NCBI GenBank assembly: GCA_028282295.1 | Contig: JANQIE010000310.1 | Location: 1 to 22,723, forward strand | Length of the DNA stretch: 22,723 bases | Direction of reading: 5' to 3' | From: Desulfobacterales bacterium | GTDB lineage: Bacteria > Desulfobacterota > Desulfobacteria > Desulfobacterales > JANQIE01 | Shown: positions 336-16,580 of the stretch, one piece after another | How the letters are laid out: each line of letters starts with the position of its first letter | Numbering within the stretch: position 1 is the first letter of the stretch | The notes under the pieces: model-generated | Seen by the model: the letters and a program-made list of their open reading frames with translations, nothing else | What the model was told of the DNA's origin: nothing | The model's database searches: none | Translations under genes and position numbers: made by a program

Positions 336-977
336 CTAGTTGATAGCCACAAATATGGGGGTGCCTAAAATAACAGGCAATCCAGAGCGTCCGCTCCAGG
401 AGTATTCAAGGTTATCGGATGGATATGTTAGCAGTGTTTTCGCAAGAAAAGTCATATTCTGTTTAAGACCCGTCATTTGCGTCGTCGCTATCTCAATCGC
501 ACATAGAGTTTCTGATTCAATGGATTGCATGTTATTAGTTACTCCACCATGATTGCGAACTAGTTGCTCATTGAGTGCCGCAACAAGATAAGGTGTTGCC
601 GAGTGAGAGCATGGCGAGCTATCACCACTTCCTCCTATAATATGTTTCTCAGATCCACCGAGACCGATGACAACGTCACTTTTAGATCCAAAATATACTA
701 GTCCTGAATCGTACGGCCCCCATCTCATTTCTTTAGTATCTTTAAAATATTCTTTTGGCTCTTTAGTATTCCCGATTAGATTTTGTGTTGATAAGAACTT
801 TTCAATAATTTGAACTTTTGAATGTATTTTTTTTTCCTTAGGGATTTCAGAAAACTCCGTTTTAATGAGTTTCAGATCAATAGTAAGTTTACCAGCAACA
901 GTCTCCAAAAGTTTTTCTGGAATCTGTGAGTACAACATGTCGACTTTGCTCTCTGAAATATAAACATAATAACGCAT
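336..977 (-). CDS. Hypothetical protein (213 aa), last gene of the AT-rich island operon. No recognisable domain; contains a Gly/Ser-rich segment.
   Basis: Complete ORF with ATG at 977, preceded by a strong RBS (AAGGAGAAAAT). It lies 30 bp downstream of the preceding gene on the same strand. Its AT-rich codon usage matches its neighbours. Confidence 0.6.
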   Translation of the reverse strand: MRYYVYISESKVDMLYSQIPEKLLETVAGKLTIDLKLIKTEFSEIPKEKKIHSKVQIIEKFLSTQNLIGNTKEPKEYFKDTKEMRWGPYDSGLVYFGSKSDVVIGLGGSEKHIIGGSGDSSPCSHSATPYLVAALNEQLVRNHGGVTNNMQSIESETLCAIEIATTQMTGLKQNMTFLAKTLLTYPSDNLEYSWSGRSGLPVILGTPIFVAIN

Positions 978-1007
978 ATTTTCTCCTTTTGGCTGGTAAG
1001 TTGAATT

Positions 1008-2114
1008 TTATACTTCTAAAAATCCCCTTTTTTCAATATCTGAAATGCTAGATATAAGTTCGTCAATTTTCAAAAAATCTAATACCCACCAAGATCCAAT
1101 TCCACTGCTATATCCAGAAACGAATCCTTTTGGTGAGGAGTATTCTATATGAATATCAGGATGTAGTGCTTTTGCTAAATAACAACCGACTGCTTGTAAT
1201 TTGCTACCAGATGGTGTAAGTAATATTCTGTGGTCAACAGACAATTCCCAGTAAAGTTTCAGCAGCAACTGGACAGTTTCTTTGTAGTATAAAGTTGAGA
1301 CAGCCCTTTTCGGCAAAATGGCGCCTCGGCGTTTATCGTAATAAGTAGGGTTATCTTCTTGCCACTCTTTTCTAAGTTTATCATGAATCCATGCCGTTGC
1401 TTCTTCTCTCCATTTGTGCACAGGCGGTTTTCCGTTGATCAATAAAAGTCTGCACGGATATACACTATTAAGAATAGATTGCGTGAGGATGTCATTAAAT
1501 GACATGAATACTATCGCTGCAGTAGGCTGCCCCTGCATAGCAACACTCGCAAGAGAGCTGGCGCTAACAACTCCATATACTCCATCAAAGATTTGAATAG
1601 ATGGTTGGTGTATTTTGTCAAGTTTTCGACATTTTTCAAACTCATCGATAGTCGGCCTATAAGCTTTGGCTTCAAAATAAATGATTTTAACTTTTACATC
1701 AGCATTCTTGCACGCGTTTAAAACAAGCATGATCTGTAGTTTGGACATTGTAGATATGTCTATAGTAACTCGCCTTGTTCTTGCTTCACGCAGCCTCGAA
1801 ATTATCTTGCTTTCAAAATCGCCTGGTTCAAATCTACTATATTCTATTATATCCTTATCCTGAATTGGTAAATTTATAGAAGATAGGTAGCTACGAACCT
1901 CTCCAAATTTATTTTCAGAATTAAATGGAATGAAACTTAGCAATATAGAAATTGATCCCATCTTAAATTGAACCGCATTTTTAAAGCCCAAAGTGCGGTC
2001 TTCAAAACCTGGTGAGTGAATAAATACTTCACCCTTGTCGATCACAACTTTTTCATTCAATTTCAGATCTGGCAACATACTGTTAAGATTGAGTGATGAA
2101 ATTGTCTCTTTCAT
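1008..2114 (-). CDS. Hypothetical protein (368 aa); speculative PD-(D/E)xK-like nuclease signature (NAD-x9-EAK).
   Basis: Complete ORF with ATG at 2114 and RBS GAGGGA. It lies 25 bp downstream of the kinase-NTPase gene. The segment ...TIDIS...NADVKVKIIYFEAKAY... fits a D-x(9)-E-x-K pattern, but this is not diagnostic. Confidence 0.6.
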   Translation of the reverse strand: MKETISSLNLNSMLPDLKLNEKVVIDKGEVFIHSPGFEDRTLGFKNAVQFKMGSISILLSFIPFNSENKFGEVRSYLSSINLPIQDKDIIEYSRFEPGDFESKIISRLREARTRRVTIDISTMSKLQIMLVLNACKNADVKVKIIYFEAKAYRPTIDEFEKCRKLDKIHQPSIQIFDGVYGVVSASSLASVAMQGQPTAAIVFMSFNDILTQSILNSVYPCRLLLINGKPPVHKWREEATAWIHDKLRKEWQEDNPTYYDKRRGAILPKRAVSTLYYKETVQLLLKLYWELSVDHRILLTPSGSKLQAVGCYLAKALHPDIHIEYSSPKGFVSGYSSGIGSWWVLDFLKIDELISSISDIEKRGFLEV

Positions 2115-2139
2115 AGACTATCCCTCATAACTTTATTTG

Positions 2140-4866
2140 TTAATCTAAATCATTGTATGCTGGATCATGATTATCTGACACTATCCTTTCGTCAGGAAAA
2201 AGAGTTAGTTGATTTTGAGTGCTTTGTGTCTGTTTCGGTTGTCTGCGTGTAATATAGCTTTTTTTGAAAGTATCAGGAAACAATAGGAGATTGTTGAATG
2301 CCTCGCAAGTCAGTTGGACACTGTCGCGCTTCGAGATAGCTAAGCTGCAAAAAGGAAGTAGTAGTCTCCGAAGATAAAGTCTGGGGACGAAGGTGCCCCG
2401 GATGCTCTTTCCCCGACTGTCACGCATAAATATTCCATAGCGAACAAGATCCCGGTATATTTCCTTGGCAATACCATCTATCCTGAACTCATCTATAATT
2501 TCTATGCGAAAAGCCATTCTTGGTACTTCTCTAACCGAATTGCCGTGCTTTATTTGATAGGGAGGCTCAAAAAGTAGAAATCTAGCAGCAGAAACAAACG
2601 CCTCGACAACGGCCTTGAGGTGATCTCCATATTCACCTCCACAAAATTTATAACTAAAACCATCATTCTCTAATAATTCGCATTCTTTTCTTATAATTTC
2701 GGGTGAGCTGGGATCATTTCTAGTAATAGAATTTAACCACTCTCCGCCTCTGTTGCGAAAAACACGGTCTTGAATAGCATCTTTAATTGGCAATGGTATT
2801 TCATTTTGTGTAAATTCATGTTGTGTAGACTCGGAAACCTGGTCGACCAAATCAGCTATAAGTTGAATCATTGTTCGAGTGTCACCTGACCATAAGTTAG
2901 AAAATATTTCATCCCCAAAGTAGTAAACTCTGGGTCTGGAGCGACCTCTCCTTTGTGAATCGCCAAGAATAGACGTAGATTTGCCATTTTTTTCATCCAA
3001 TTTTGTGCTTCGTAACCTGCGGGCAAATTCTGTTTTCGAAATATCAAAACGTCCTAGAATAAAATGTAGAGAGTTTTTACCCTCTAAAATGCGAGGGTCA
3101 AATTTCAATCTTTTAGAAAAAACCTCATTAAGAAATGCGAGTCTCTCTGATTCAGGTAAAAATAATGCTTCTTCACCCATATCAACGAGTTGATAGTCAT
3201 CTCCATCTTGAAGAATTTTGCCACTGGAGTCTTCTGAGACAAAGGTGCTTGATGCTTCGGTAGCTATTTTTGCAAGAAACTCGGAGGATCTTTGTAAAAA
3301 AAGTCGATTAAGTACACGTTGCATTCCAAACGAAACACGCGGTATAGAAAAATCATCTATAAAAAGTAGCACATAACGTTCCCCTATCCAATTGCAGCAT
3401 TTTCTTATTTTTCCAATAAAATTGGGCAACCATCTATGCTGTGACATGAGTTGATAGCCTGGAAAGGTATTGCGCATGTTATTTTTCGTGGGAAATTTCC
3501 ATTTAATTTCCTCCAGAACCGTACGAAAATGTTCTAAACTATCTTCACCCTCGACTAAGGTTATTGTGTCTTCTTCAGACATAAGTAATGATCTAACAAG
3601 TTTGATAAGATCATCAGAGGCGTTATCACCGAATCGGCCAGATCTGGCAGATTGCACTGAGAGTAGGTCGGCTAAGATACATAAGTTCGCATAACAAATT
3701 AACTGCGATTCATCTTCAATTGTTGGGTTAGTAGGGAAATGTGTAAATGCATCAGAAAAATCATTAGCATTTACATAAAAAGCGACAAATTGGGTTGGGG
3801 AATTATGTGAAGTAATCTCCTCACATTCAACCATCAATCTTTCGCTGAGGCGCCTCAGTAGCATAGTTTTCCCACAACCGCGAGGCCCTGTCAGAACTGT
3901 TGGGATATCTAGCGCAAGAATTTTTGATCTTGCAGGAACTTCTGGCACAAAAAGGAAACGCCACCATTCCCAACGATCACCTATCATCTCACTGACTTGA
4001 AATTGGCCAACGTTATGCTTTCGCTCCATAATTGGCGGCAAAAGATTACTATCTTTTTTAATTGCCGAACCGTTTGTACTTAATTCGTGTGATTGAGCCC
4101 GACGTTTAATGTCTTTTAGATGTTTAAGTAACTCAAATGGTTTTATACGCTCAGCGTTATTAGGCTCCTTGAGCAACTTGCTAAATATCTTTTTGATTGA
4201 TTTTAAAATCTGGCGGTCCGTGACGGACGATTTCGTGTAATCTACCTTTCTGACCATTTCATTGAAAATGTTAATGAGTCCTTCGTAGTCATCCCTATAT
4301 CTGGCTTGAGTACCAGTTGCGCCATAGCCAAAATCAGATACAAAAATAGGAACGCGTGATTCAAGAGAGTCATTTAGCGTAGAAGTTGATATGTCACCAA
4401 TAAGAATGTTGCCAGGATGTAAATCACCATGTCGCGAAACTCCATTATCTTGACAAGCATGAAGAACATGTAATATCTGATTGACAACAGAGTAAAGGAA
4501 ACTGGTTTGAACTTGTTTCACGCGATCAATATAACTTTTTAGATTTTCACCAGGTGATATGAAATCCCAAGCAGTATATTGGCATAAATGTATCTCGTTC
4601 TTATGTTTTATTGATGCGGTACCTAACTCATGGAAATGAACAACACCCTGGACAAGAGCTAACCTCATCACTTTTATAACCTCACTGTCCCAACCACTAT
4701 TTAGGTCATCAAAAATGAGTTTGATCGCTCTGTCTAAACCTGGAAGATCATTATGCTCCGCTCTGTATACATACCCTATTTTGCCTGCACCCACGAATTC
4801 TCGCAGAGTGTAGTTGCCTACAACTTTATCATTTAGATCTTTAAACCAAGATTTATTCGCGGCCAT
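2140..4866 (-). CDS. Fusion of a protein-kinase-like domain and a P-loop NTPase (908 aa), STAND/AAA+-like.
   Basis: Kinase-like motifs in the N-terminal domain: Gly-rich loop VGAGKIGYVYRA, Lys in AIKLI, catalytic loop HGDLHPGNILIG (Asp codon near nt ~4420) and DFG-like SDFGYG. Middle domain: Walker A GPRGCGKT (near nt ~3885) and Walker B-like VLLFIDDF. About 250 aa of C-terminal extension follow. Confidence 0.8.
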   Translation of the reverse strand: MAANKSWFKDLNDKVVGNYTLREFVGAGKIGYVYRAEHNDLPGLDRAIKLIFDDLNSGWDSEVIKVMRLALVQGVVHFHELGTASIKHKNEIHLCQYTAWDFISPGENLKSYIDRVKQVQTSFLYSVVNQILHVLHACQDNGVSRHGDLHPGNILIGDISTSTLNDSLESRVPIFVSDFGYGATGTQARYRDDYEGLINIFNEMVRKVDYTKSSVTDRQILKSIKKIFSKLLKEPNNAERIKPFELLKHLKDIKRRAQSHELSTNGSAIKKDSNLLPPIMERKHNVGQFQVSEMIGDRWEWWRFLFVPEVPARSKILALDIPTVLTGPRGCGKTMLLRRLSERLMVECEEITSHNSPTQFVAFYVNANDFSDAFTHFPTNPTIEDESQLICYANLCILADLLSVQSARSGRFGDNASDDLIKLVRSLLMSEEDTITLVEGEDSLEHFRTVLEEIKWKFPTKNNMRNTFPGYQLMSQHRWLPNFIGKIRKCCNWIGERYVLLFIDDFSIPRVSFGMQRVLNRLFLQRSSEFLAKIATEASSTFVSEDSSGKILQDGDDYQLVDMGEEALFLPESERLAFLNEVFSKRLKFDPRILEGKNSLHFILGRFDISKTEFARRLRSTKLDEKNGKSTSILGDSQRRGRSRPRVYYFGDEIFSNLWSGDTRTMIQLIADLVDQVSESTQHEFTQNEIPLPIKDAIQDRVFRNRGGEWLNSITRNDPSSPEIIRKECELLENDGFSYKFCGGEYGDHLKAVVEAFVSAARFLLFEPPYQIKHGNSVREVPRMAFRIEIIDEFRIDGIAKEIYRDLVRYGIFMRDSRGKSIRGTFVPRLYLRRLLLPFCSLAISKRDSVQLTCEAFNNLLLFPDTFKKSYITRRQPKQTQSTQNQLTLFPDERIVSDNHDPAYNDLD

Positions 4867-4920
4867 TTGTCTACCTATTTTGCAACATGCTATTAAACCG
4901 AAAAAATTCCAGACACTTAA

Positions 4921-6048
4921 TTAAGTTTTTTGGAACACAAGTGCTGATTCTTTTTTAGTTCCACGGCATTCTCTTCGAGATCTGCGAATATCTGGAATCG
5001 TATCCTCATATGTAGATATAAGTTGAAAGGATCCCAATATATTTTCAGTTTTAAATAGTTCTTTAGTAATTTTTGTCGTTTTCCCATTGCGAAAATTACC
5101 TTTTTGAGCATCACCAACAACAAGGATCATATAACCGCCTTCAAGGATCCCAGGTGCGAGCCTTATGCAAACTGATTTAATTAAATCTCTGAATGCTTGA
5201 ACTTTTTCACGACGGATATCTTCGACACCGTTCGGAATATTGCGCCTTATGAACCAAATGCGGAGTCTGTTATCTCGAACGTAATCTAACTCATTCATAT
5301 ATGGCGGACTAGTAATAACTGCATTGATGTTATTTGTGTGCGGAAATTTTCGGGCATCAATTTCTATAACCTTTTTTAATAGATTATAATTTTTAGGAGT
5401 GCGTCGAAATGTCCTTTTTATTTTCGCTTGAAGGCGTATAAGAACATCTCTTGGCTCATACATTTCAGGATAACTCTGTCTCGGAAATTTTTTGTCTCTC
5501 AGATAAGGAACTAAATGACTTGCCGGGTACGACAAGAAACCAGGACGTTGGTGATGAAGAATACCTAACAGGCATGCTAAAAGAAAATCGTCACCTATAT
5601 CAACACATGCGTCACGAAATGCTAACGCATGCTTTAGTGTGGTTGGGTGAAAAAAATTACGAACCCACTTAGGAACTGATCGTAGGTCTTGTTTTGCGTG
5701 GCGATTTCTTGAAAGTTCCCAAGCTATTTTTAATCTTGACTCAGCATCAAGTAAGTTTTCAGGTGGGAATAACTTAGCTCGCGTGAGCAAGGCTGCATAT
5801 GGATTCCAATCAGCAGCAATAACTGGTCTGCCAGCTGCAACTGCCTCCAATGCTACAACACCAGAACCACAAAATGGATCGATAATCAAATCCCCAATCT
5901 TTGTATATTTTTTTATAAGCGATGAGGCTATAGATGTTTTCATTCTACCTATATAAGGCGCTATTTGGTGAAAAGTCCAATCATACTTGAGGGTTGCTTT
6001 GTTGGTCCAGATCGGATTCAAGGACGAGCTATCACAATTTCTGTCCAT
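4921..6048 (-). CDS. DNA methyltransferase of the N4-cytosine/N6-adenine family (375 aa).
   Basis: The N-terminal block FHQIAPYIGRMKTSIASSLIKKYTKIGDLIIDPFCGSGVVALEAVAAGRPVIAADWNPYAALLTRAKL matches the AdoMet-binding region of N6_N4 MTases (motif I DPFxGSG). Catalytic motif IV TSPPY lies near nt ~5300. ATG at 6048 with RBS GGTGA. Confidence 0.8.
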   Translation of the reverse strand: MDRNCDSSSLNPIWTNKATLKYDWTFHQIAPYIGRMKTSIASSLIKKYTKIGDLIIDPFCGSGVVALEAVAAGRPVIAADWNPYAALLTRAKLFPPENLLDAESRLKIAWELSRNRHAKQDLRSVPKWVRNFFHPTTLKHALAFRDACVDIGDDFLLACLLGILHHQRPGFLSYPASHLVPYLRDKKFPRQSYPEMYEPRDVLIRLQAKIKRTFRRTPKNYNLLKKVIEIDARKFPHTNNINAVITSPPYMNELDYVRDNRLRIWFIRRNIPNGVEDIRREKVQAFRDLIKSVCIRLAPGILEGGYMILVVGDAQKGNFRNGKTTKITKELFKTENILGSFQLISTYEDTIPDIRRSRRECRGTKKESALVFQKT

Positions 6049-6241
6049 AGAAATATCACCATAAAAAAATAATAATAAAGTACTTGTTATTATAAAATAG
6101 TTAAAAGCATGAATATATGGGGGGCCTGCCTTTAACTTAATTGAAAATCAAAAAAAATGCACAAAAAACAGGGCAAAATAAATAAAATGTGCAAAAAGAT
6201 CATGGAGTATTATTTAAATCATAGATTTGAAAATTAGATTT

Positions 6242-6265
6242 TTGACCCGAAAATTCATTGAAATT
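6242..6265. promoter_or_regulatory. The 24-bp element TTGACCCGAAAATTCATTGAAATT, a 21/24 direct-repeat match to 129-152 (TTGACCCCCAAATTAATTGAAATT). It lies in the promoter region upstream of the methyltransferase gene.
   Basis: Direct comparison of the two sites. Both are in the same orientation and bracket the four-gene operon. Confidence 0.7.
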
Positions 6266-6355
6266 CTAAGGTGATGGCTCCTCTCCTACTATCAGTACTT
6301 TTTCTTAAAAAGCATAAAATTGAGTGAAGATTGCAATTTGTGGTCCAGTTTAATA

Positions 6356-6694
6356 TTAACATTCAGTTGGGTTGGAAATAAGCGTCTCAATAACCTCATC
6401 GAAGTTTTGGTCGCTGAACTGCTTGGGATCGCTATTAGGATAATCCGCGTCTGTTATTTTAAACCGAAAACTATTTCGATTTAGGTCAATTCTTGGATAG
6501 GTAAATTCAAGTAGCTGGATCGGAACGGAGGAGTCAGGTTTTGGGTAATTGTTTTTCTTTATCAAGTTGCGTAGCGCTTCGGATACCTTGAGTCCTTCGA
6601 TTTTTATCCAGCGTTGAATGTCGTCAGCAGATTTTTTAGGTAATTCCGTTATCGGGGTTGTGCTGATGAGCGTTAGATCTGGCTTTTTGGTCAT
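6356..6694 (-). CDS. Small hypothetical protein (112 aa from M21; 132 aa if started at 6754); possible ribbon-helix-helix-like regulator.
   Basis: The ORF lies in the AT-rich island upstream of the operon, on the same strand. The internal Met (MTKKPDL...) is preceded by GAGGAGG at good spacing, so 6694 is preferred over 6754. The N-terminal segment LTLISTTPITELPKK...SEALRNLIKK loosely resembles an RHH fold. Confidence 0.4.
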   Translation of the reverse strand: MTKKPDLTLISTTPITELPKKSADDIQRWIKIEGLKVSEALRNLIKKNNYPKPDSSVPIQLLEFTYPRIDLNRNSFRFKITDADYPNSDPKQFSDQNFDEVIETLISNPTEC

Positions 6695-7013
6695 CTTGCG
6701 CCTCCTCGAAGATCCATCTTGTAATTGCACCAGTGAACGGATACACTTTTCCATTCACCTTTTGGCTGGCCGGTATCAAAGGCCTCTATATAATGCTACA
6801 TTAGATACCCATCATCCTTTCGGAACAGGGATTTTCAATTTCTTGAGGACTTTTTTAAGATAACGTCTTTTGCTTTCACTCAAAGTACCGACCCACTCCG
6901 TCATTAAGCCAATGGTATTAAGTAGCTTTCTGGATTCCGGCGTTCGCCGGAATGACGGCAACTCAGAGTGACTGAGTTCTGCGTTAATTACGTGCGCTCT
7001 CTTACGAGTAAAT

Positions 7014-10000
7014 CTACGACTCACCACTTTTATCAGGCATAGCTTTATTTCGGCTTTTCGCGGATCGCTTTCTTTCCCGCATTTCATTCTCAAGAAAAGC
7101 TACAAAATGCTGATACTTACGACTTTTCGGTTTTAAGGTCAAAGCGTTCTTAACGTCGCTGAGCGAGCGTTTGTGGTCTTTTTTGTTATACCAGGCGATG
7201 CCGCGGTTGTAGTAGGATTCGTGGTCATTGGGATCGACTTCGATGGCTTTGGTGTAGTAGGCGATGCCTTCGTCGAAGTCGCCTTTTTCGCGGATGACGC
7301 CTTGGTAGGCGGTGCGCAGGCCGGTGAGGGCGATGGCGATCTGGCTGATCTGTTTGGATTGCTTGCGGGTTTCGGTCAGGGCCGGTTCCATCCAGGCGTG
7401 CATGAGGGCGAATTGCTTTTCGATGACGTCGATCATTTCATTGGGGAGCGGGCCGGTGGTTGCGAGTGATTCGGGGCGGGCGGATTGATCGACGATGGCT
7501 TTGGTTTGGGTGATGAGTTGTTGGAGTTGGGTCATGGTTTCGTCGGAGAAGGTCATTTGCATGGGGGCTTCTTCGACCGGTGTTTGGGGTTGGGCGTTCT
7601 GGGCGGCGGTGGCGATGACTTTGCGGATGGCGTCGAGGCCTCCCTGGAAGGCGGAGAGTTGGGCCACCACACGGTTGATCGGGTCGCTGGTGTCGGCGCC
7701 CTGGAAGAGTTGTTTTTGTTTGTAGGCGGCGATGATCTCTTCCCAGCGGTCTTCTTCGGCCGGGGTGATCCAGCCGGTCATTTTCTTGAATTTGAGCAGG
7801 TTGGCTTCGGTGCCGGTGGTCAGGGTCTGGGCTTCGTTTTCGTAGTGGGCCATGATCAGGGTTTTGAGTTCGTCGTCGTTCATAATGGGGACGATTTTTT
7901 CGACAATGCGGTTCATGTTGCGGTAGGAACCCTGGAGTTTGAAGGCCGGTTCGGTGCGGTATTCGTCGGCTTGGCCGGCGGAGTAGATGTACTGCTGGTT
8001 GACCTTGAGGATGACGTCCCGGACGACCATCATCTTTTGCATGACGCTGACCATTTCATCGACTTCCTCCACCGAGTAAGTGCCGGTGAACTCGGCGCCT
8101 TCGCGGCTGTTGTTGGCGGCGATTTTGATGACGCTGTAGACGTCCTGCTGGCTTTTGCTGGCCAGTTTGTTGAGCACGGCGTTGGAGGTGAGCGAGTTTT
8201 CCAGGTAGCTCATTTCGAAATCGTCGGCGGTGTCGCCGATGATGTCGCCCAGGTTGTAGGTGTCGGCGCGGTTGGCGAGCATGTCGGGGATTTTGAATTT
8301 TTCGCCGCTTTCGGTGTAGGGATTGCCGGCCATGACCACGGCGACTTTTTTGCCGCGAAAATCGTAGGTGCGGCTGCGGCCCTTGTAGACGCCTTCGATT
8401 TTGCGCTGGGCGTCGCACAGGGAGATGAATTTTTGCAGGAACTCGGAGTTGCAGTGTTGGATGTCGTCCACGTAGATCATGACGTTGTCGCCCATTTCAA
8501 AGGAGAGGTTCAGCTTCTGCAATTCCTCCTTGGCGCTGGCGTTGGGGGCTTCGGCCGGGTCGAGGGAGGTGACGGTGTGGCCGATGGCCGGGCCGTTGAT
8601 CTTCATGAAGATGATGCCGAGCCGGTTGGCCAGGTATTCCATGAGGGTGGTCTTGCCGTAGCCGGGGGGGGAGATGAGCAGCAGCAGGCCCATGAGGTCG
8701 GTCCGTTTGCTTTCGCCGACCACGCCGACCTGTTTGGCCAGGTTGTCGCCCACCAGGGGCAGGTAGACTTTGTTGATCAGTTTGTTGCGCACAAAGGACG
8801 AGAGGATGCGCGGTTTGAATTCATCCAGGCGCATGGTGGTGCGCATGTCGTCGGTAAGTTTGCTTTTTAAGGCGTGGAAGTTTTCGTATAGCGGCCGGAC
8901 GTGTTCTTCGAACCGGGTCAGTTTGGCCATGAAGCGGATGTAGTTGAAAGCGTAGGCGCTTTTTTCGATGACGGCATGGTCGCCCACCAGGCCTTCCAGT
9001 GCGGCGGTCATGGGCACGTTGACGGCATCGCGCAGTTGCAGCAGGTTGCTTTGGTCCACCGGGTCCTTGCCGGCCACGAAGACCAGGGCGGCAGCTTCGT
9101 CGATGTAGTCGGCGGTGCCGTTTTCGTCCTGGGCGGCGGCGTAGCTGCCGACCCAATCGCGCACCAGTTCGAAGTCGTTGGCCGGGGTTTGCGTTAGGTC
9201 CTTGCGGGCGGCTTTGAATTTGGCGTCGAAGCGGTGGTGTTTGATGTGGGCTTCGAAGCCGCGGGCCAGGTCGAGGGCGGTTTTGCTGATTTCAAAATGG
9301 CCTTTGCGGGCCGGTTCGTGGTCGCAGAGTTCCAGGAACAGGTAGCGGGCCGCGGCCGGGGCATCGGTGGTGCCGAACAGGCCGTTGGTTTCCAGAAAAG
9401 CGGTGATCAGGCCGGTGAGTTCGGCGATGTAGTTGTCCTGGTCCTTGCGGTTGGGGAACAGGCTGCGGAGCTGACCGAAGGCGCTCAGTTTGGCGATGAG
9501 CAGGTCGCGGTTCTGTTTGTCGTCGTACAGGGCCCAGAAGATGCGGGCCAGGGCGCGCACCCGGGGATGGAACCGGAGCAGGCCCACGGCGAAATGGATG
9601 CCGGCCAGGGCTTTGAAGATCTTTTCGCCGTCGTTGTCGTGGATGCCTTTGGCGTAGCCTTCGGTGTAGCGCGGGCCCATAAACTGCTGCACGTGGGCGG
9701 TGAGTTCTTCGTCGTTGTCGGCGGCGATGGCGTCGAGCAGGGTTTGGCGGTCTTCGTCGGAGGCGGCTTTGAGTTCGTCGAGCAGTTTGAAAGCCAGGTA
9801 CTCGCCCCGGTAGACGTTCCTGTTTTCCGAGGGGAGGGTCATGTCCCAGACGTCGCGGGTCTGCGCGAAGGTGTCGTCTTCGATGGCTTCGAAGAAGTTG
9901 GTGCCGGTGAGGTGGAACAACTGCTGGTCGTCGCGCTTGACCACGGTGAGGTCCAGAGGCTGGCGGTTGACCGAGAACTTATGGTTGCCGAACTGGATCA

Positions 10001-12560
10001 CCTGTTCGCCGTCCACGAAGAGTTCCTGGCGGTCCTTGAGCTGGCGCACGGTGTCTTCGCGGATGGTTTTCAAGCGGGCCTGGATGTCATCGGCTTTGAC
10101 GGTGTCGCCGATCTCAAGGAGCTGGGCCACGATTTCGCGGGTTTTCTCCACCATCAGGTCCGAGGCGAAATAGCCGTTGATGGCGTTGATGTCGTCGTAG
10201 GTGGCCACGCGGGTGGCGATCCCTTTGAGAATCCGTTCAGCCGAGCGGAGCAGGGTGTCGGCCCGTTTGTTGCGCGCTTCGATGAGGCCGAGTTTGCGTG
10301 ATTCAAAGGCGTTGTAGAGTTCGTCGCGTTTTTCCGAGAGTTGCAGCACAAAGTCGTCGAAGTCGGCGAAACGGCCTTCGAGTTCTTCAATCTGGACCAT
10401 GACCTTGGTCAGGAACTCATCGCATTTTTCCGGGGTGTCGCAGATGTCCAGGTAGTTGATCACGCTCTGGTTGAGCAGCTTGATCTGGGCGTTGAACTGG
10501 GCCACCCCTTCCACGCTTTGCAGGCTCTTGATTTTGTTTTTAAGCCCGGCTTTGTGCTGGTTCAGGGTGGCGAAGACGGTGGAGATGTTGTCGATGATGC
10601 GGGTGGTCTGGGTGGCGTCCTCGATTTTTAGATTGCTCACGATTTCGATGAGCATCTCCAGTTCGGCACCGGCCTTGTCGGCTTTTTCCTGGAGCTGTTT
10701 GCCTTCGGTGACCCGGTCGAGGGCTTCGATCCGGTTGCCGATATCGGCGACCTTGGTTTCGTAAGGCGTCAGGGCTTCGGGACCGAGCAGAAATTCGACG
10801 CAGCCGGTGGACATGGCGTCGGTGGCCGCGCGGACTTTTTCCTCCAGGGCTTCGATGGCAGGCAGGTCGACGTAGCGCAGTTCTTTCAGGGAGATGATTT
10901 CGCCCCGCACGGTGCGCAGTTGCATGAGGCCGTCCACAAACAGGTCGATGCTGTCGAGTACATCCGGTTTGAGTCCGTCGAGCAGTTGCCGGGCCGCTTT
11001 GGATACCCGGCCGACTTCGTTGGCGGTGTTTTTTTTCAGGCGGACGACTTTTTCGAATTCGTCGATGGCCCCGGCCGCGGCGGCCTTGATCTCCTGGATG
11101 GCTTCCTTGATGTTGAAGGCGTCTTCACGGTCGAGCCAGAAATAGGTGTCGCTGATGTCGGTGGCTTTTTTGACCAGATCGATGTAGAGCCCGGCGTAGA
11201 TGTCTTCGCGGCTGAGGAGTTTGAACAGTTCGTTGCATTCGGCCATGCAGCGGACGATGTCGGGATTGCCGATTTTGTAAAGGAAACTGTCGCTTTTTTC
11301 GGTGACGGCGTGGGTGCTTTCGATAAAAGGCGTTTGCCAGATTTGCACCACGTGGTGACGGGTCGGTTCCTCGTCGCTGCGGAAATAGAGCATTTCGCCG
11401 TTGGCGAAGTTGGAAAAGCCGCTGCAGGTGATCGGGTTTTCGACCTTTTGTTCGATGATGTTATAGGGCAGCAGGGCGTAGTCGCCGGAGTCGCGTTTGT
11501 AGAAGCTGAAGAGAAAGTCCTCGCCGTTGGCCGAGGTGATGCGGTTTTCAAAGACCATCTGGGGGGCGCCGTTTTCAAACTGTTTGAGTTCGCCGGTCTG
11601 CAAGTAGTAGCCGTTGGCGAAGATCAGGCCCTGGTCGTCGGGCAGGAGCACGCAGGCCGCGCCGATGGCGTCCACCCGGCAGACTTCCTGGATTTTTTCG
11701 TTGAAGATGAAATAGCGGGTTTCCTTTTCCATGTAGGGCTGGATGCGCACCAGGATCATGTGGCCGACAACGGCGTAGTCGATCTGGGCGTCGTCCAGGG
11801 TCTGGTCCGGGTTTTCCACCGGTTCGGCATAGATGCCCTGGCCCGAGGCGGTGTTGTCTTCGACCTTGAAAGTGATGTCGCCGCCCACGGCTTCCACGAA
11901 GAGGCGGTCTTCAATGGAGATGTGTGGGAATTCGCCGAACCGGTGGGCGTCGCGGGTGGTCCGTTCCCAGGTGAATTCGTGCTGGGGCGGGAATTTGAAT
12001 TCGTGGTCGCTGCGGTTGTCCACGTAGTCGAGTTTGCCGTCCTGCAGGACCCACTTGAAGGTTTTGATGTCGGTGACGGCTTTGCCCACCCGGAAGACCA
12101 TGAACAGGTAGGGGCCGATGATGGAGAATTTTACGAAGGCCGTGTCCTTGTAATATTTGTAGAGGGCCTGGAAGTCTTCTTCGAAGCGTCCGGTTTTGAG
12201 GATGTCGAGGGGTTGGGCGGTGAAGGTGCGGTCTTTGTATTCGTAGACCGCGAAAACGTCGCTGAGCCGGGTTTCGGTTTTCAGGCCCATGTGGACGTTG
12301 TAGCCGAAGATGAAGCATTCGTCGGACAGGGCCACCATATCGCGCGGGGTGCAGTTGTTGCTGGTGGTGAGCCGTTCGGTGGCCAGCAGGGTCGGTTCGA
12401 TGGCCCCGAAGATGTCCTTGCGGGCCTGGTTGAGTTGGCCCAGGCGGTTTTTCAGTTCCTTGCCGTGGGACAGGAGCCGTTTGCGGATGATTTCGTAGGT
12501 GTCGCCTTCCAGGATGGTGTCCTGTTGCGGGGTGGGGCTGGTTTCTTCGGGTGCGGTCAT
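7014..12560 (-). CDS. Giant multidomain protein (1848 aa). An N-terminal ~600-aa domain of unknown fold is followed by a long coiled coil and a MoxR/AAA_5-type ATPase, ending in C-terminal TPR repeats.
   Basis: Uninterrupted 5.5-kb ORF with ATG at 12560 and RBS AAGGAAAT. Walker A LLLISPPGYGKTTL, Walker B VMIYVDD, and the sensor region VMAGNPYTESGEKFKIPDMLANRAD (MoxR/McrB/dynein-type) are present. The C-terminal repeats AYYTKAIEVDPNDHESYYNRGIAWYNKKDHKRSLSDVKNAL are TPR-like. The central region is heptad-rich, charged and predicted coiled coil. Confidence 0.85.
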   Translation of the reverse strand: MTAPEETSPTPQQDTILEGDTYEIIRKRLLSHGKELKNRLGQLNQARKDIFGAIEPTLLATERLTTSNNCTPRDMVALSDECFIFGYNVHMGLKTETRLSDVFAVYEYKDRTFTAQPLDILKTGRFEEDFQALYKYYKDTAFVKFSIIGPYLFMVFRVGKAVTDIKTFKWVLQDGKLDYVDNRSDHEFKFPPQHEFTWERTTRDAHRFGEFPHISIEDRLFVEAVGGDITFKVEDNTASGQGIYAEPVENPDQTLDDAQIDYAVVGHMILVRIQPYMEKETRYFIFNEKIQEVCRVDAIGAACVLLPDDQGLIFANGYYLQTGELKQFENGAPQMVFENRITSANGEDFLFSFYKRDSGDYALLPYNIIEQKVENPITCSGFSNFANGEMLYFRSDEEPTRHHVVQIWQTPFIESTHAVTEKSDSFLYKIGNPDIVRCMAECNELFKLLSREDIYAGLYIDLVKKATDISDTYFWLDREDAFNIKEAIQEIKAAAAGAIDEFEKVVRLKKNTANEVGRVSKAARQLLDGLKPDVLDSIDLFVDGLMQLRTVRGEIISLKELRYVDLPAIEALEEKVRAATDAMSTGCVEFLLGPEALTPYETKVADIGNRIEALDRVTEGKQLQEKADKAGAELEMLIEIVSNLKIEDATQTTRIIDNISTVFATLNQHKAGLKNKIKSLQSVEGVAQFNAQIKLLNQSVINYLDICDTPEKCDEFLTKVMVQIEELEGRFADFDDFVLQLSEKRDELYNAFESRKLGLIEARNKRADTLLRSAERILKGIATRVATYDDINAINGYFASDLMVEKTREIVAQLLEIGDTVKADDIQARLKTIREDTVRQLKDRQELFVDGEQVIQFGNHKFSVNRQPLDLTVVKRDDQQLFHLTGTNFFEAIEDDTFAQTRDVWDMTLPSENRNVYRGEYLAFKLLDELKAASDEDRQTLLDAIAADNDEELTAHVQQFMGPRYTEGYAKGIHDNDGEKIFKALAGIHFAVGLLRFHPRVRALARIFWALYDDKQNRDLLIAKLSAFGQLRSLFPNRKDQDNYIAELTGLITAFLETNGLFGTTDAPAAARYLFLELCDHEPARKGHFEISKTALDLARGFEAHIKHHRFDAKFKAARKDLTQTPANDFELVRDWVGSYAAAQDENGTADYIDEAAALVFVAGKDPVDQSNLLQLRDAVNVPMTAALEGLVGDHAVIEKSAYAFNYIRFMAKLTRFEEHVRPLYENFHALKSKLTDDMRTTMRLDEFKPRILSSFVRNKLINKVYLPLVGDNLAKQVGVVGESKRTDLMGLLLLISPPGYGKTTLMEYLANRLGIIFMKINGPAIGHTVTSLDPAEAPNASAKEELQKLNLSFEMGDNVMIYVDDIQHCNSEFLQKFISLCDAQRKIEGVYKGRSRTYDFRGKKVAVVMAGNPYTESGEKFKIPDMLANRADTYNLGDIIGDTADDFEMSYLENSLTSNAVLNKLASKSQQDVYSVIKIAANNSREGAEFTGTYSVEEVDEMVSVMQKMMVVRDVILKVNQQYIYSAGQADEYRTEPAFKLQGSYRNMNRIVEKIVPIMNDDELKTLIMAHYENEAQTLTTGTEANLLKFKKMTGWITPAEEDRWEEIIAAYKQKQLFQGADTSDPINRVVAQLSAFQGGLDAIRKVIATAAQNAQPQTPVEEAPMQMTFSDETMTQLQQLITQTKAIVDQSARPESLATTGPLPNEMIDVIEKQFALMHAWMEPALTETRKQSKQISQIAIALTGLRTAYQGVIREKGDFDEGIAYYTKAIEVDPNDHESYYNRGIAWYNKKDHKRSLSDVKNALTLKPKSRKYQHFVAFLENEMRERKRSAKSRNKAMPDKSGES

Positions 12561-12684
12561 GCGGGTATTTCCTTGTTAGTGGTTTGTAACCGGTTGCTGT
12601 GCGTTTGTGTCATTGCGGGATTGTCCCGGAAATAATCGTTTTTTTTTGCCCTGAGCCTCCGATAAACGCTGTGGGAGAGGTCTT

Positions 12685-13140
12685 TTTGTCGATTTGATTC
12701 TGGACCCCGGCGTTCGCCGGGGTGACGGGGGGGTGGGTGTGGTTGCGGTTGTGCTAGCGGTGCAACCTGTCGCGGGTAGCGGCGTTTTTTGCCTCACCCG
12801 GTCGTCATGCCGGACTTGATCCGGCCTCCAGCATCTAATGGGCTATATCCTCTTAAAATCGTCTCCCGGCGTTCGTCGGGGGAAAATGTATTTTGTCGAT
12901 CTGATTCTGGACCCCGGCGTTCGCCGGGGTGACGGGGGGTGTGGGTGTGGTTGCGGTTGTGCTAGCGGTGCAACCTGTCGCGGGTAGCGGCGTTTTTGCC
13001 TCACCCGGTCGTCATGCCGGACTTGATCCGGTATCCAGAATCTAATGGGCTATATCCTTTTAAATTGTCTCCCGGCGTTCGTCGGGGGAAAATGTATTTT
13101 GTCGATCTGATTCTGGACCCCGGCGTTCGCCGGGGTGACG
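12685..13140. repeat. Tandem repeat with a 206-bp period: two full units (12685-12890 and 12891-13096) plus a 44-bp partial third unit.
   Basis: Near-identical units begin TTTTGTCGAT(T/C)TGATTCTGGACCCCGGCGTTCGCCGGGGTGACG. Each unit contains several GC-rich hairpins, e.g. CCCCGGCG-TT-CGCCGGGG and TGCCGGA-CTTGA-TCCGGCA. The array lies in the upstream region of the giant gene. Confidence 0.9.
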
Positions 13141-13232
13141 AGAGGGTGGTCGATTTTATGGAGCTTTCTATCGGCGGTAGCAGCACCCTTTTCAAAAGCT
13201 GTTGTCATTCCGGCGAAAGCCGGAATCCAGAA
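13097..13232. repeat. Direct repeat copy A (~136 bp). It consists of a module shared with the tandem array plus a module carrying the TTCCGGC-GAAA-GCCGGAA hairpin. It flanks the GIY-YIG gene.
   Basis: Near-identical to 13601-13736, with 3 mismatches by eye. The GNRA-loop hairpin is at 13208-13225. Confidence 0.85.
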
Positions 13233-13266
13233 TCGTTAATCGTTTTTTTAACCACCTTTAAGGCCG

Positions 13267-13557
13267 CTAAATAACAGATTGGTAAAGATCTTCCCAATTC
13301 GGATTTTTTTCTTCGATCAGATCTAACTTCCAGATGCGCTTCCAATCTTTTAACCGCTTTTCCCGAACGATCGCGGATTCCATATTTTCGTGCAGTTCGT
13401 ACCAGACCAGTTGGTAGACGTTGTAGCGCTTGGTAAATCCAGCCACCTTGTCATTTTTATGCTCCCAAATGCGTTTTGCGAGGTTTGATGTTACACCGAC
13501 GTAGAGTGTACCATTGCGCGCGTTCGCTAAAATGTAAACAGCCGGTTGCTTTTGCAT
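13267..13557 (-). CDS. Small GIY-YIG family nuclease (96 aa), YhbQ/YazA-like.
   Basis: The GIY-YIG core AVYILANARNGTLYVGVTSNLAKRIWEH is present. A conserved Glu/Arg region (REKRLKDW) follows. ATG at 13557. Confidence 0.85.
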   Translation of the reverse strand: MQKQPAVYILANARNGTLYVGVTSNLAKRIWEHKNDKVAGFTKRYNVYQLVWYELHENMESAIVREKRLKDWKRIWKLDLIEEKNPNWEDLYQSVI

Positions 13558-13600
13558 GGTTGTTTGCTCAAGTTTCGGTTTATACCGGTACGCAAAGGTA

Positions 13601-13736
13601 TTCTGTCGATCTGATTCTGGACCCCGGCGTTCGCCGGGGTGACGAGAGGGTGGTCGATTTTATGATGCTTTCTATCGGCAGTAGCAGCACCCTTTTCAAA
13701 AGCTGTTGTCATTCCGGCGAAAGCCGGAATCCAGAA
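13601..13736. repeat. Direct repeat copy B (~136 bp), partner of 13097-13232. It lies in the 3' region of the flotillin gene.
   Basis: Same sequence as copy A, with a GAAA-loop hairpin at 13712-13729. Confidence 0.85.
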
Positions 13737-13843
13737 GGTTTTTATCCGGTAGCCTGTGGTTTGCCTTGCTTCAACTGCGTCAAGTTGATGATTCGCCGGC
13801 CCTGTCTATGTTTCAGAGAAGACCGGTTTATTGCCTGCCGGGC

Positions 13844-15904
13844 TTATTCACTTGCGGTTGCTTTCGCCTTCACCGCGTCGACGATTTTATCCCCCACCCC
13901 CGACCGCTCGGCCATGGCCAGCAGGTCGTAGAGCTGACCGCGCTCGTCGGCGTTGTCGGTGAGGCTGATCAGCTTGGTCAGGGCGGCGGAGACCGACAGG
14001 TCTTTCAGGTCGCCGGCGCTGATGCCGAATTGGTTGAAAAAGCGTTTGATACGGGCGTGGAAATATTCCGGGTCGCTGTTGAAGAAGGTCTCCTTGACGT
14101 CGCTGAGAACCTTGCTGTTGTGCACGTAACGGTCCACGGCTTTGCCGCCGGTGACGGCGTGGGTGATTTTGTCGAAGAACATGGACTCACCGCCCACGAT
14201 GTCGACTTTGGCCGTTTTGAGGGCTTCACCCAAAACCACGGCCTGCTGCTCGGCGATCTGCTTGCGGTTGTCGATCTCGGCCAGTTCAATGGCTTTTTCT
14301 TTGTCCAGTTCCAGTTTGAATTCCTCGTGTTCGCGGCCCACGGCGTCGAGCAGCTTCATGGCGTTGGCTTTGTCTTCGATGCCCTTGGCTTCGGCCTGGA
14401 ATTTCATTGTCAGCACCTTGGCTTCGGCTTCGCCTTTTTGTTCGATGAGAAAATTGTTCTGCTCGGTGACCTTGACGTCGGCCAGGCCCGGCGCGGCGTG
14501 TTCGGCAACGGCGGCGTCGGCAAGCATTTTTTTGGCCGTGGATTCTTTTTCCGCCGCGCTTTGGGTGGCTTCGGCCAGGATGACTTTCTCCTCGGCCTGC
14601 ATTTCAGCGGCGGTCTTGGAGGCTTCGGCGCCGGTAACGGTTTCGTAGCGCGCTTCGTCGGCTTTGAGCTCGGCGGCTTTCTTGGCGGCTTCGGCGCCCT
14701 TGATTTCAATGACCAGGGCCTGTTCAGCGTCCTTTTCGGCCTGGGTCACGGCCACCCGTTTTTCACGGTCGGCGGTGGCAAATGCCTGGGTGTCCTTGAT
14801 CCGTTCCTGTTCTTCGACCACGGTTTTTTCCACCATGACCCGCTCGCGGATGACGTCCTGAATCGCCTTTTTCTCCACTTCTACCGATTTGTCCTTTTCG
14901 ATGCCGGCCAGGGCCACCACCCGTTCGCGCTCGGTGGCTTCGAGCAGTTGGTCCTTTTGCACGCGCTCGTTTTCAATGGCTTCGGTGCGCTCCTTGTTTT
15001 TTTGGGCCACGATGATCTGGCGCTCCTTGTTTTGCTCGGCGACAAGGACTTCTTCTTCCGTGCGGATGCGGGCCGATTCGGCTTTTAAATGTTCTTCCTG
15101 CTGGATCTTTTTTGTCTCGGCTTCCTCGCGGGCCTTGTTGGCTTCAACTTCGCGTTGCTGCCGGTTTTCCGATTCGGCCAGTTGGCGGTTGAGTTCCAGG
15201 ATCGCTTCCTTGGCCTCCACGTCCTGTTTGGTGATGGTCTTTTCCTTTTCACGCTCGATCTCGTTGGCCCGGATTTTTTGCTCGGCGGTCAGGCCGGTGA
15301 TTTTTTTGATACCTTCGGAATCGAGAATGTTGTCCGGGTTGAGCATGTCCACGGAGGTTTGCTCCAGAAAATCGATGGCGGCGTCGTCGAGCACAAAGCC
15401 GTTCAGGTCGGTGCCGATGTTTTTCAGGATTTCCTCTTTGAAGCGTTCGCGCGAGGTGTACAGTTCCACGAAATCGAATTGCTTGCCCACGGTTTTCAGG
15501 GCTTCGGAAAATTTGGCTTCGAACAGTTCCTGGAGGGCGTCGCGGTGTGAGGCCCGGTCGCAGCCGATGGATTGGGCCACCTTCAACACGTCTTCGACGG
15601 TTTTGTTCACGCGTACGAAAAAGGCCACTTTTATATCGGCGCGCATGTTGTCCATACAGATCAGGCCTTCCTGGCCGTTGCGGTCGATATTGACCCGCTT
15701 GACCGAGATGTCGATCAATTCGAAGCGGTGCAGCACCGGGATGACGATGATACCGGAAAAAGAGACTTTGGTTCCGCCCATGCCGTTGCGCACGATGGCC
15801 TGACCCTGCTCCACCTTGCGGTAGCATTTGACGAGCATGGCAAAGATACCGACCAGGATTAAAATGACAATTGTGATGGCAATTCCGATTACAGTTTGTG
15901 GCAT
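13844..15904 (-). CDS. Flotillin-like SPFH/band-7 protein (686 aa), YqiK/FloT-like.
   Basis: An N-terminal transmembrane helix is followed by an SPFH domain (…GGTKVSFSGIIVIPVLHRFELIDISVKRVNID…). A very long Glu/Ala/Lys-rich coiled-coil (EA-repeat) region and a C-terminal flotillin-tail domain follow. ATG at 15904 with a strong RBS GGAGGAG. It starts 16 bp after the upstream NfeD-like gene. Confidence 0.9.
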   Translation of the reverse strand: MPQTVIGIAITIVILILVGIFAMLVKCYRKVEQGQAIVRNGMGGTKVSFSGIIVIPVLHRFELIDISVKRVNIDRNGQEGLICMDNMRADIKVAFFVRVNKTVEDVLKVAQSIGCDRASHRDALQELFEAKFSEALKTVGKQFDFVELYTSRERFKEEILKNIGTDLNGFVLDDAAIDFLEQTSVDMLNPDNILDSEGIKKITGLTAEQKIRANEIEREKEKTITKQDVEAKEAILELNRQLAESENRQQREVEANKAREEAETKKIQQEEHLKAESARIRTEEEVLVAEQNKERQIIVAQKNKERTEAIENERVQKDQLLEATERERVVALAGIEKDKSVEVEKKAIQDVIRERVMVEKTVVEEQERIKDTQAFATADREKRVAVTQAEKDAEQALVIEIKGAEAAKKAAELKADEARYETVTGAEASKTAAEMQAEEKVILAEATQSAAEKESTAKKMLADAAVAEHAAPGLADVKVTEQNNFLIEQKGEAEAKVLTMKFQAEAKGIEDKANAMKLLDAVGREHEEFKLELDKEKAIELAEIDNRKQIAEQQAVVLGEALKTAKVDIVGGESMFFDKITHAVTGGKAVDRYVHNSKVLSDVKETFFNSDPEYFHARIKRFFNQFGISAGDLKDLSVSAALTKLISLTDNADERGQLYDLLAMAERSGVGDKIVDAVKAKATASE

Positions 15905-15920: not shown

Positions 15921-16580
15921 TTATTCTTCAAATTTTTCAACAAAAAAGATCCCTTTGTCTTTATCTTCGTCGTAGACCACCGCTTTGTCGCCTTTTTTCA
16001 GTACGGTGCCCTCGGTGGTGCGCACATTGATCAACAGTGGCGCGCCTTTGGTTTCGATTTCAAGCTGTCCGAACGAAGAGGTGACTTCACTGGTAACCAC
16101 CGTGCCGGCGCGCAGCAGGATTTTTTCGTGGGTCTCCTCTTTTTCGAAGGTTGAGAAAATTTTACGCAGGGGCCGGGTGATGACCCCGGCGACAAACAGA
16201 CTGGCAATGATATTCGGAATCAGCAGTGCGGCCCCCCAGATTATCGACAGGCCGGGGTTGAGGTAATAGTTGGCCAGCATGGAGATGGTCCAGCCTACCA
16301 GGATCATGGCGCTGAAAATGACCATGACCGGGACTTCCCCGATATTCATGAGGTTGAAGAACCAACGCAGCAAGCCGCCGGGTTGATCCGCGCCCACGTC
16401 GGCATCCGCGTCCGCGCCGGCGTCCAGGTCGGCATCCGATTCAAAATCGAAGTCAACGTCGAACAGGTTCACATCCAGGGCCCCCAGGATCACAAAGATC
16501 CAGTACAGTACGATCAGCGCCAGGAGCACCGTCCAGGGCAGGTTGACCAGGGCGATCGAGGCTTGCATGACTTCTACCAT
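15921..16580 (-). CDS. YqiJ/NfeD-like inner-membrane protein (219 aa), the usual partner of flotillin.
   Basis: Two N-terminal transmembrane helices are followed by an acidic low-complexity segment (DVDFDFESDADLDAGADADADVGAD). More transmembrane segments follow, then a C-terminal soluble beta-rich (OB-like) tail. Its position immediately upstream of flotillin is typical for yqiJ-yqiK / nfeD-floT operons. Confidence 0.75.
   Translation of the reverse strand: MVEVMQASIALVNLPWTVLLALIVLYWIFVILGALDVNLFDVDFDFESDADLDAGADADADVGADQPGGLLRWFFNLMNIGEVPVMVIFSAMILVGWTISMLANYYLNPGLSIIWGAALLIPNIIASLFVAGVITRPLRKIFSTFEKEETHEKILLRAGTVVTSEVTSSFGQLEIETKGAPLLINVRTTEGTVLKKGDKAVVYDEDKDKGIFFVEKFEE

Follow-up and report, generated by a model that had tools for sequence, protein, structure and literature searches.

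A probable Ssn locus, with a GIY-YIG nuclease gene among CGTC-tagged hairpin repeats, inserted into a flotillin operon of a Desulfobacterales genome

Contig JANQIE010000310.1 of the Desulfobacterales bacterium assembly GCA_028282295.1 was analysed over its full 22,723 nt, referred to here as the window. It carries a YqiJ-like gene (15921–16580), a flotillin-like gene (13844–15904), a small GIY-YIG nuclease gene that we call ssn (13267–13557; 96 aa, TAG stop) and a ‘giant gene’ (7014–12560) for an 1848-aa DUF3686/AAA/TPR protein. All four are encoded on the minus strand, and ssn is co-oriented with the operon. The spacer between the flotillin-like and DUF3686 genes (12561–13843) is 1283 nt long and is an insertion relative to the orthologous operons. 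Almost all of it is accounted for by ssn and by repeat units built on a 28-nt hairpin, the Ssn-related motif (SRM). The 22.7-kb contig holds seven canonical SRMs and two variants with a 5-nt loop.

The ssn product is a single-domain protein. Residues 6–76 match the GIY-YIG family PF01541 (E 1.2e-17), no second domain was found in its 96 residues, and no further family of Pfam or NCBIfam scored above its own cut-off. By BLASTP it is 63% identical over 93 residues (E 2e-44) to a 94-aa open reading frame (ORF) of Neisseria gonorrhoeae, which we located by tblastn against the plasmid collection in 2.17-Mb records (NZ_CP119140.1, our locus L204, and NZ_CP119142.1) that are evidently chromosomes filed as plasmids. 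This ORF, unannotated in NZ_CP119140.1, has Tyr6, Tyr17 and Glu64 and is surrounded by NTS repeats; the published SRM pattern matches nine of these. From its length, these residues and the NTS flanks we infer that it is the orthologue of SsnA, the 94-aa single-domain GIY-YIG protein (CDD cd10448) with which NTS and SRM repeats are associated across phyla (Chenal et al., Nat Commun 2025, PMC11893778). Those authors define homology to the family by E < 1e-10 to Neisseria SsnA, and the value of 2e-44 to the orthologue places the window protein within it. In an alignment of the window protein with 24 homologues, Tyr8, Tyr19, Arg29, His33 and Glu66 are invariant. Tyr8, Tyr19 and Glu66 correspond, with the same spacing (11 and 47 residues), to Tyr6, Tyr17 and Glu64 of SsnA, where each of the substitutions Y6A, Y17A and E64A abolishes cleavage (PMC11893778).

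The only solved relative found by sequence is BH0048 (1zg2), a UPF0213 (YhbQ-family) protein, and this match is weak (E 1e-3, 22 bits). Membership of UPF0213/YhbQ entails close similarity, and the contrast between E 1e-3 for BH0048 and E 2e-44 for the SsnA orthologue argues, at the level of sequence, against the neighbouring YhbQ family. The label ‘YhbQ-like’, given to the gene in a preliminary description made from the DNA letters, was therefore imprecise.

The hairpins around ssn have the build of the CGTC-tagged repetitive extragenic palindromes (REPs) defined by Di Nocera et al. (BMC Genomics 2013, PMC3733652), namely a CGTC or TGTC tag, an 8–9-bp stem, a 4–5-nt loop and a CCA tail. That class takes in dRS3 of Neisseria and the RPEs (RPE-4/-6) of Rickettsia (PMC3733652). 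NTS (CGTCATTCCCGCGMAVGCGGGAATCYRG) is the oriented form of dRS3, and its relatives are the SRMs (PMC11893778). The published SRM pattern, HGTCWYN(0-2)YYVSBRHN(0-5)WNVSBRGN(0-2)RNCYNB, has seven matches in the window, all between genes, against 0.13 expected from mononucleotide shuffles; a chance origin of these matches is excluded. Each is a 28-nt hairpin arranged CGTC-stem-loop-stem-CCAG, and two stem types occur: TGTC-ATTCCGGC-GAAA-GCCGGAAT-CCAG and CGTC-ACCCCGGC-GAAC-GCCGGGGT-CCAG. As in the CGTC-tagged REPs of Di Nocera et al., an 8-bp stem with a 4- or 5-nt loop stands between a CGTC/TGTC tag and a CCA(G) tail, and dimers of two stem variants (heterodimers) are frequent. Unlike in those REPs, the second stem type starts with AC and so departs from the near-invariant AT at stem positions 1–2. 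Both stems are CCGG-based, unlike the ATTCCCGC stem of the Neisseria system.

Two near-identical direct repeats flank ssn, as the preliminary description had reported. Copy A (13090–13232) lies downstream of the gene and copy B (13594–13736) lies between it and the flotillin gene, and each is a head-to-head SRM dimer. In pairwise alignment the copies are 97% identical, with five mismatches, none of them within the hairpins. The extents first given (13097–13232 and 13601–13736, about 136 bp) hold at the right ends, where the boundary is sharp and directly follows TCCAGAA, but the left ends lie 7 nt further out, making the repeat 143 nt long. The terminal hairpin that had been noted in each repeat (TTCCGGC-GAAA-GCCGGAA) is present: folded as single-stranded DNA (ssDNA), ATTCCGGC-GAAA-GCCGGAAT forms an 8-bp stem with a 4-nt loop at −9 kcal/mol (z −3.9). 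Calling the repeat a ‘hairpin element’ on this basis was incomplete, as a second, inverted hairpin, GATTCTGGACCCCGGCGTTCGCCGGGGTGAC (GATTCTGGA-CCCCGGCGTTCGCCGGGG-TGAC), starts each copy. The 143-nt unit thus consists of a 23-nt leader, a minus-strand SRM, a 62-nt core and a plus-strand SRM. Its ends are inverted over 31–36 nt, and the ssDNA of either strand folds over the full unit into a single long hairpin (−36 kcal/mol, z −6.2, for one strand; −33 kcal/mol, z −5.0, for the other).

Four SRMs belong to these two dimers. The one proximal to the start of ssn (CGTCACCCCGGCGAACGCCGGGGTCCAG; 13617–13644) is on the minus strand, like the gene, and lies 59 nt before the ATG; its 8-bp stem folds at −9.8 kcal/mol as ssDNA. 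The one proximal to the stop (TGTCATTCCGGCGAAAGCCGGAATCCAG; 13203–13230) is on the plus strand, inverted with respect to the gene, and lies 36 nt after the stop. The outer arm of copy B (13707–13734, plus) and the inner arm of copy A (13113–13140, minus) also match the SRM pattern. Because the two head-to-head dimers bracket ssn, the gene is flanked directly, on both sides, by SRMs in the inverted orientation typical of the family, with their tails toward the gene. Besides the two proximal SRMs the pattern has five further sites in the window, the outer arm of copy B and the inner arm of copy A among them.

Next to copy A, two tandem units of about 207 nt (about 12684–13097; about 96% identical) are built in a related way. 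Each has a leader, a minus-strand SRM (12700–12727 in unit 1, 12907–12934 in unit 2), a 75-nt G-rich core, a plus-strand SRM variant with a 5-nt loop and a degenerate hairpin. The 5-nt-loop variants (12803–12831, CGTCATGCCGGACTTGATCCGGCCTCCAG, and 13010–13038, CGTCATGCCGGACTTGATCCGGTATCCAG) were read from the sequence, the first being unmatched by the published pattern, and form the other arm of the units (CGTCATGCCGGACTTGATCCGG..TCCAG). The first of these variants, with its CTTGA loop, also flanks ssn homologues in two other loci (L138 and L169). Because the left end shared by the 143-nt copies also heads both 207-nt units, its hairpin recurring in four mismatch-free copies at 12696, 12903, 13109 and 13613, the 143-nt repeats are more readily understood as a pair within an array of hairpin dimers. 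The seventh SRM stands alone (6930–6957, minus), 56 nt downstream of the DUF3686 stop. Each 207-nt unit also contains an extra hairpin, TCTCCCGGCGTTCGTCGGGGGA (12862–12883 and 13068–13089), an SRM-like stem-loop that lacks the CGTC tag and the CCAG tail and was flagged as terminator-like on the antisense strand only.

The association between ssn and SRMs recurs around homologues of the gene. A metagenome scan yielded 80 loci with homologues 55–78% identical to the window protein, and SRMs were counted around 73 distinct loci with the strict published pattern. An SRM in canonical orientation lies within 150 nt on at least one side in 47 of the 73 and on both sides in 19. The median gap to the homologue ORF is 15 nt upstream and 0 nt downstream, and orientation is strongly biased (42:8 upstream, 34:7 downstream). 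More than 500 nt from the ORF the SRM background is 0.059 per kb, and the oriented association is about 50-fold above it. By inspection, the usual layout is ...CGTCATTCCGGCGAAAGCCGGAATCCAG-(~10-18 nt)-ATG/GTG...ORF...stop-CTGGATTCCGGCTTTCGCCGGAATGACG. The closest homologue (L206, 80% identical) is accompanied by the same stem variants, ACCCCGGC and ATTCCGGC. For Ssn homologues at large, an SRM is reported nearby in 71% and on both sides in 42% (PMC11893778). We also observed composite SRMs beside ssn homologues, in which a second hairpin is nested in the loop, for example cgtcattccggtcccgcatcaagtgcgggataaactccagccggaatccag; the published pattern misses them. They occur at L207 2779–2888, L208 1189–1298 and L205 625–734 and in the downstream flanks of L123, L127 and L139.

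Searching from the motif side gives a different count. A degenerate pattern, GTCAYYCCGGCGAAMGCCGGRRTCCAGAA, scanned over one genome per species, found at least 119 stretches. Hosts among the matches listed include Deltaproteobacteria, Dehalococcoidia, Bacteroidota, Elusimicrobia, Binatia, Alpha-, Beta- and Gammaproteobacteria and others, and the 28-nt motif is the same letter for letter in metagenome-assembled genomes (MAGs) from many phyla. Just a 30–47-nt hairpin module is common to the 119 motif loci listed; none of them contains a homologue of the whole 143-nt or 207-nt units. Their SRM pairs are tail-to-tail in 47 cases, head-to-tail in 14 and head-to-head in 5, the commonest doublets being gene-less with spacers of about 16 nt. 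An ssn homologue lies within the fetched locus (≤8 kb) in 2 of the 119, a low number that is expected if one gene serves many dispersed repeats. The refuting observation named in the preliminary description, repeat copies that are never near GIY-YIG genes, was badly posed, since the copies of a dispersed repeat should mostly lie far from the gene that serves them when this gene is single-copy. Many deltaproteobacterial MAG loci among those listed (L001–L119) also have a conserved stretch of about 25 nt (..tgatgrtctcgtaaaaagtc..) before the SRM doublet, which points to a longer, dispersed element with the doublet at its base.

The best named relatives of the flotillin-like protein are from Desulfobacterales (Desulfococcaceae, Desulfonema ishimotonii, strain HSG16), at 65–69% identity. 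Three orthologous loci, whose flotillins are 80, 78 and 72% identical, keep the order yqiJ–flotillin–DUF3686, but the flotillin-to-DUF3686 spacer is only 21, 17 and 1 nt, against 1283 nt in the window, and no SRM occurs anywhere in these loci. The preliminary description had proposed this very comparison of intergenic regions. The flotillin C-terminus and the DUF3686 N-terminus of the window align end to end with those of an orthologue. Because the orthologous spacers are so short and the gene ends are collinear, the 1283-nt spacer is DNA inserted between two intact genes. Sequence comparison thus shows the whole cluster of SRMs and ssn as an insertion into the yqiJ–flotillin–DUF3686 operon of a Desulfobacterales-like genome. 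In D. ishimotonii itself (BEXT01000001.1, L203 8107–8548) the same spacer is 442 nt long and holds a different family of hairpin repeats (catcgttccaacgctctgcgttggaatg ... gcgttggaacgatg, about three copies with modules in common), so unrelated REP-like repeats appear to have colonised this intergenic spot independently.

Taken together, these results are best explained if the window carries an Ssn locus: an Ssn-family GIY-YIG nuclease with its cognate SRMs, which are CGTC-tagged REPs of the class of Neisseria dRS3/NTS. We put the probability of this reading at roughly 0.85. The identity of the protein, that of the motif and their oriented association are established by the comparisons above. 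As in the Ssn/NTS-SRM system (PMC11893778), a GIY-YIG protein with a single domain and about 94 aa, its Tyr, Tyr and Glu in the same spacing, is encoded among alternately oriented repeats whose CGTC-stem-loop-stem-CCAG hairpins match the published pattern. The preliminary description thus made a genuine observation, and the second of its two interpretations, that the repeat family is associated with or mobilised by small GIY-YIG nucleases, is essentially right as to the association, which the 47 of 73 loci and the published survey (PMC11893778) bear out; mobilisation is still conjecture. What it had rediscovered is the Ssn/SRM system.

Several points weigh against this assignment. The proximal gaps measure 59 and 36 nt, toward the upper end of the family distribution, so that the window does not hold a flush canonical unit, and a by-eye comparison of these gaps with the flanks of the closest homologues gave no convincing sign of decayed SRMs. 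The identity of the N. gonorrhoeae ORF as SsnA is based on length, residue positions and NTS flanks rather than on an accession. The AlphaFold2 model of the 96-aa protein has the β-β-α-β-α order, with moderate confidence (pLDDT 68), and a Foldseek search of the PDB with it returned nothing below E 0.3. Natural competence, the process modulated by Ssn in Neisseria, is not known for the host. The window also differs in detail from described systems: its host is a Desulfobacterales-like MAG rather than a symbiont or pathogen, and the SRMs nearest its gene point their tails inward, whereas in N. gonorrhoeae (NZ_CP119140.1) the NTS repeats next to the gene have their heads toward it.

If the window protein behaves like its characterised relatives, it would be an SRM-specific ssDNA nuclease. 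SsnA binds its hairpin only as ssDNA, and only that of one strand, and cuts a few nt 5′ of the hairpin; double-stranded DNA and RNA are not substrates, the enzyme is reported not to bind RNA, and in N. meningitidis it reduces transformation by NTS-bearing DNA (PMC11893778). By homology with the Neisseria and Wolbachia enzymes, an SRM of the window would fold into its 8-bp hairpin when the DNA is single-stranded, as in replication, repair, DNA uptake or conjugation. Ssn would then bind the hairpin and the flanking GTC and C bases strand-specifically and cut a few nt 5′ of the CGTC tag, leaving duplex DNA and RNA alone. Its biological role may be the restriction or processing of SRM-bearing ssDNA, the spread of the repeats, or both.

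The array resembles other repeat families in part. Neisseria intergenic mosaic elements (NIMEs) are arrays of 50–150-nt units with inverted short palindromic repeats at their ends, located between genes. The 143-nt and 207-nt units are constructed in exactly the same way; unlike in NIMEs, the cores are unrelated, the lineage is different and the nuclease gene itself lies inside the array. As with REPIN/RAYT systems and BIMEs, inverted hairpin doublets fold into long ssDNA hairpins and the repeats are dispersed between genes. Also as in REPIN/RAYT, a single-copy gene for an ssDNA-hairpin-specific enzyme, an activity assigned to the window protein by homology, is flanked by its own repeats. In contrast to REPIN/RAYT, which is defined by an HUH/Y1 transposase of the IS200/IS605 type and a GTAG tag, the window has a GIY-YIG enzyme and a CGTC tag, no transposase domain was found among the window ORFs scanned, and mobilisation by Ssn is a hypothesis only.

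That the locus is itself a selfish element is compatible with its being an Ssn locus. Here SRM–ssn–SRM would resemble an insertion sequence (IS), with Ssn excising and copying SRM dimers and the 143-nt and 207-nt units being non-autonomous, locally multiplied derivatives. We regard this as possible though tentative. CGTC-tagged REPs seem to have no transposase of their own (Di Nocera et al., PMC3733652), whereas the window repeats have an associated ssn, and the IS analogy was raised for Ssn by Chenal et al. (PMC11893778). It is conceivable, with similar reserve, that the long-missing enzyme mobilising CGTC-type REPs is Ssn and that SRM–ssn–SRM is autonomous now or was so recently. In favour, the cluster is inserted into an operon that is compact in relatives, the ORFs of relatives are bounded almost flush by inverted SRMs, gene-less tail-to-tail doublets are the commonest pairing, and the motif is letter-identical across MAGs of many phyla. 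Against it, no Ssn is known to transpose or to carry out excision, and strand-transfer activity is not known for a nuclease alone. The spacers of empty doublets bear no recognisable similarity to the spacers next to ssn on the same contigs, and at the window locus neither a target-site duplication nor a precise boundary of the insertion can be defined. A search of 50,697 phage records gave no homologue, and of the matches in the plasmid collection all but one fall on non-mobilizable records, for the most part megabase-sized replicons and mislabelled chromosomes.

The first interpretation in the preliminary description was that a free-standing GIY-YIG gene entered, or was captured by, a single 143-nt element and thereby generated the flanking duplication. 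The 97% identity and direct orientation of the copies fit this, and direct repeats on both sides are seen at several other ssn loci (such as L156 with 191 nt and L194 with 108 nt). A 143-nt duplication far exceeds any known target-site duplication, however; the leader and left hairpin head the neighbouring 207-nt units as well, which indicates an array rather than a split single element; and the closest relatives of the gene lie between SRMs without such duplications. We consider this origin improbable.

It is very unlikely that the hairpins are ordinary REP-type terminators or mRNA stabilisers of the flotillin operon with ssn as an unrelated neighbour. REPs typically lie downstream of genes, and their transcription is common (PMC3733652); the solo SRM lies directly 3′ of the giant gene. 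Transcribed hairpins may act at the RNA level. Against such a role, which the preliminary description had suggested, stand the 50-fold oriented association with ssn, the hairpin-free 1–21-nt spacers of the orthologous operons and the reported failure of SsnA to bind RNA (PMC11893778). The coding (minus) strand has no terminator-like sites, and their total count (5) is within the range of shuffles (3.5 ± 1.6). Rfam gave no match at the gathering score, nor at E ≤ 1, and no tRNA genes were found. Equally hard to sustain is the reading of ssn as a classical homing endonuclease of the GIY-YIG type, one that would cleave empty SRM dimers in duplex DNA and be copied into them by repair: in most loci the gene does have inverted copies of a conserved 28-nt sequence on either side, and the group I intron endonuclease model TIGR01453 matches it weakly, but this match (24.4 bits, residues 6–37 only) is far under the cut-off of 56, the protein stops at residue 96 without the C-terminal DNA-binding domain of I-TevI-type enzymes, its characterised relatives do not cut duplex DNA (PMC11893778), and it occurs once per locus, with no second copy found in any of the 80 loci.

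Beyond the DUF3686 gene, the region 336–6350 encodes a DUF7019 protein, a 368-aa ORF without a family, a 908-aa protein with protein-kinase and ORC/CDC6-like ATPase regions and a DNA methyltransferase-like protein, and looks like an accessory or defence islet adjoining that gene. A striking AT-rich stretch of 300 nt (6040–6350) follows the methyltransferase-like region. Two small minus-strand ORFs (6356–6754, 132 aa, and 6812–7093, 93 aa) belong to no Pfam or NCBIfam family; the second is probably spurious because it overlaps both the solo SRM at 6930–6957 and the 3′ end of the DUF3686 gene.

That such hairpins are linked to small GIY-YIG nucleases was published in 2025, and the window locus adds an example rather than a principle. 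Its CCGG-stem SRM subtype, with two co-occurring stem variants and a matching Ssn, could add to the sequence-specific ssDNA nucleases that biotechnology can draw on. Empty sites in the orthologues, with spacers of 1–21 nt against 1283 nt, are clean comparative evidence that an ssn-bearing SRM array can enter between functional genes, and the comparison bears both on the mobility of Ssn/SRM and on what propagates CGTC-tagged REPs. Should Ssn prove to mobilise them, SRM–ssn–SRM would have given rise to the gene-less SRM doublets and to the 143-nt and 207-nt units as its non-autonomous derivatives, the invasion of the flotillin–DUF3686 operon would document such an event of transposition or amplification in nature, and Ssn/SRM would be a second, GIY-YIG-based counterpart of RAYT/REPIN.

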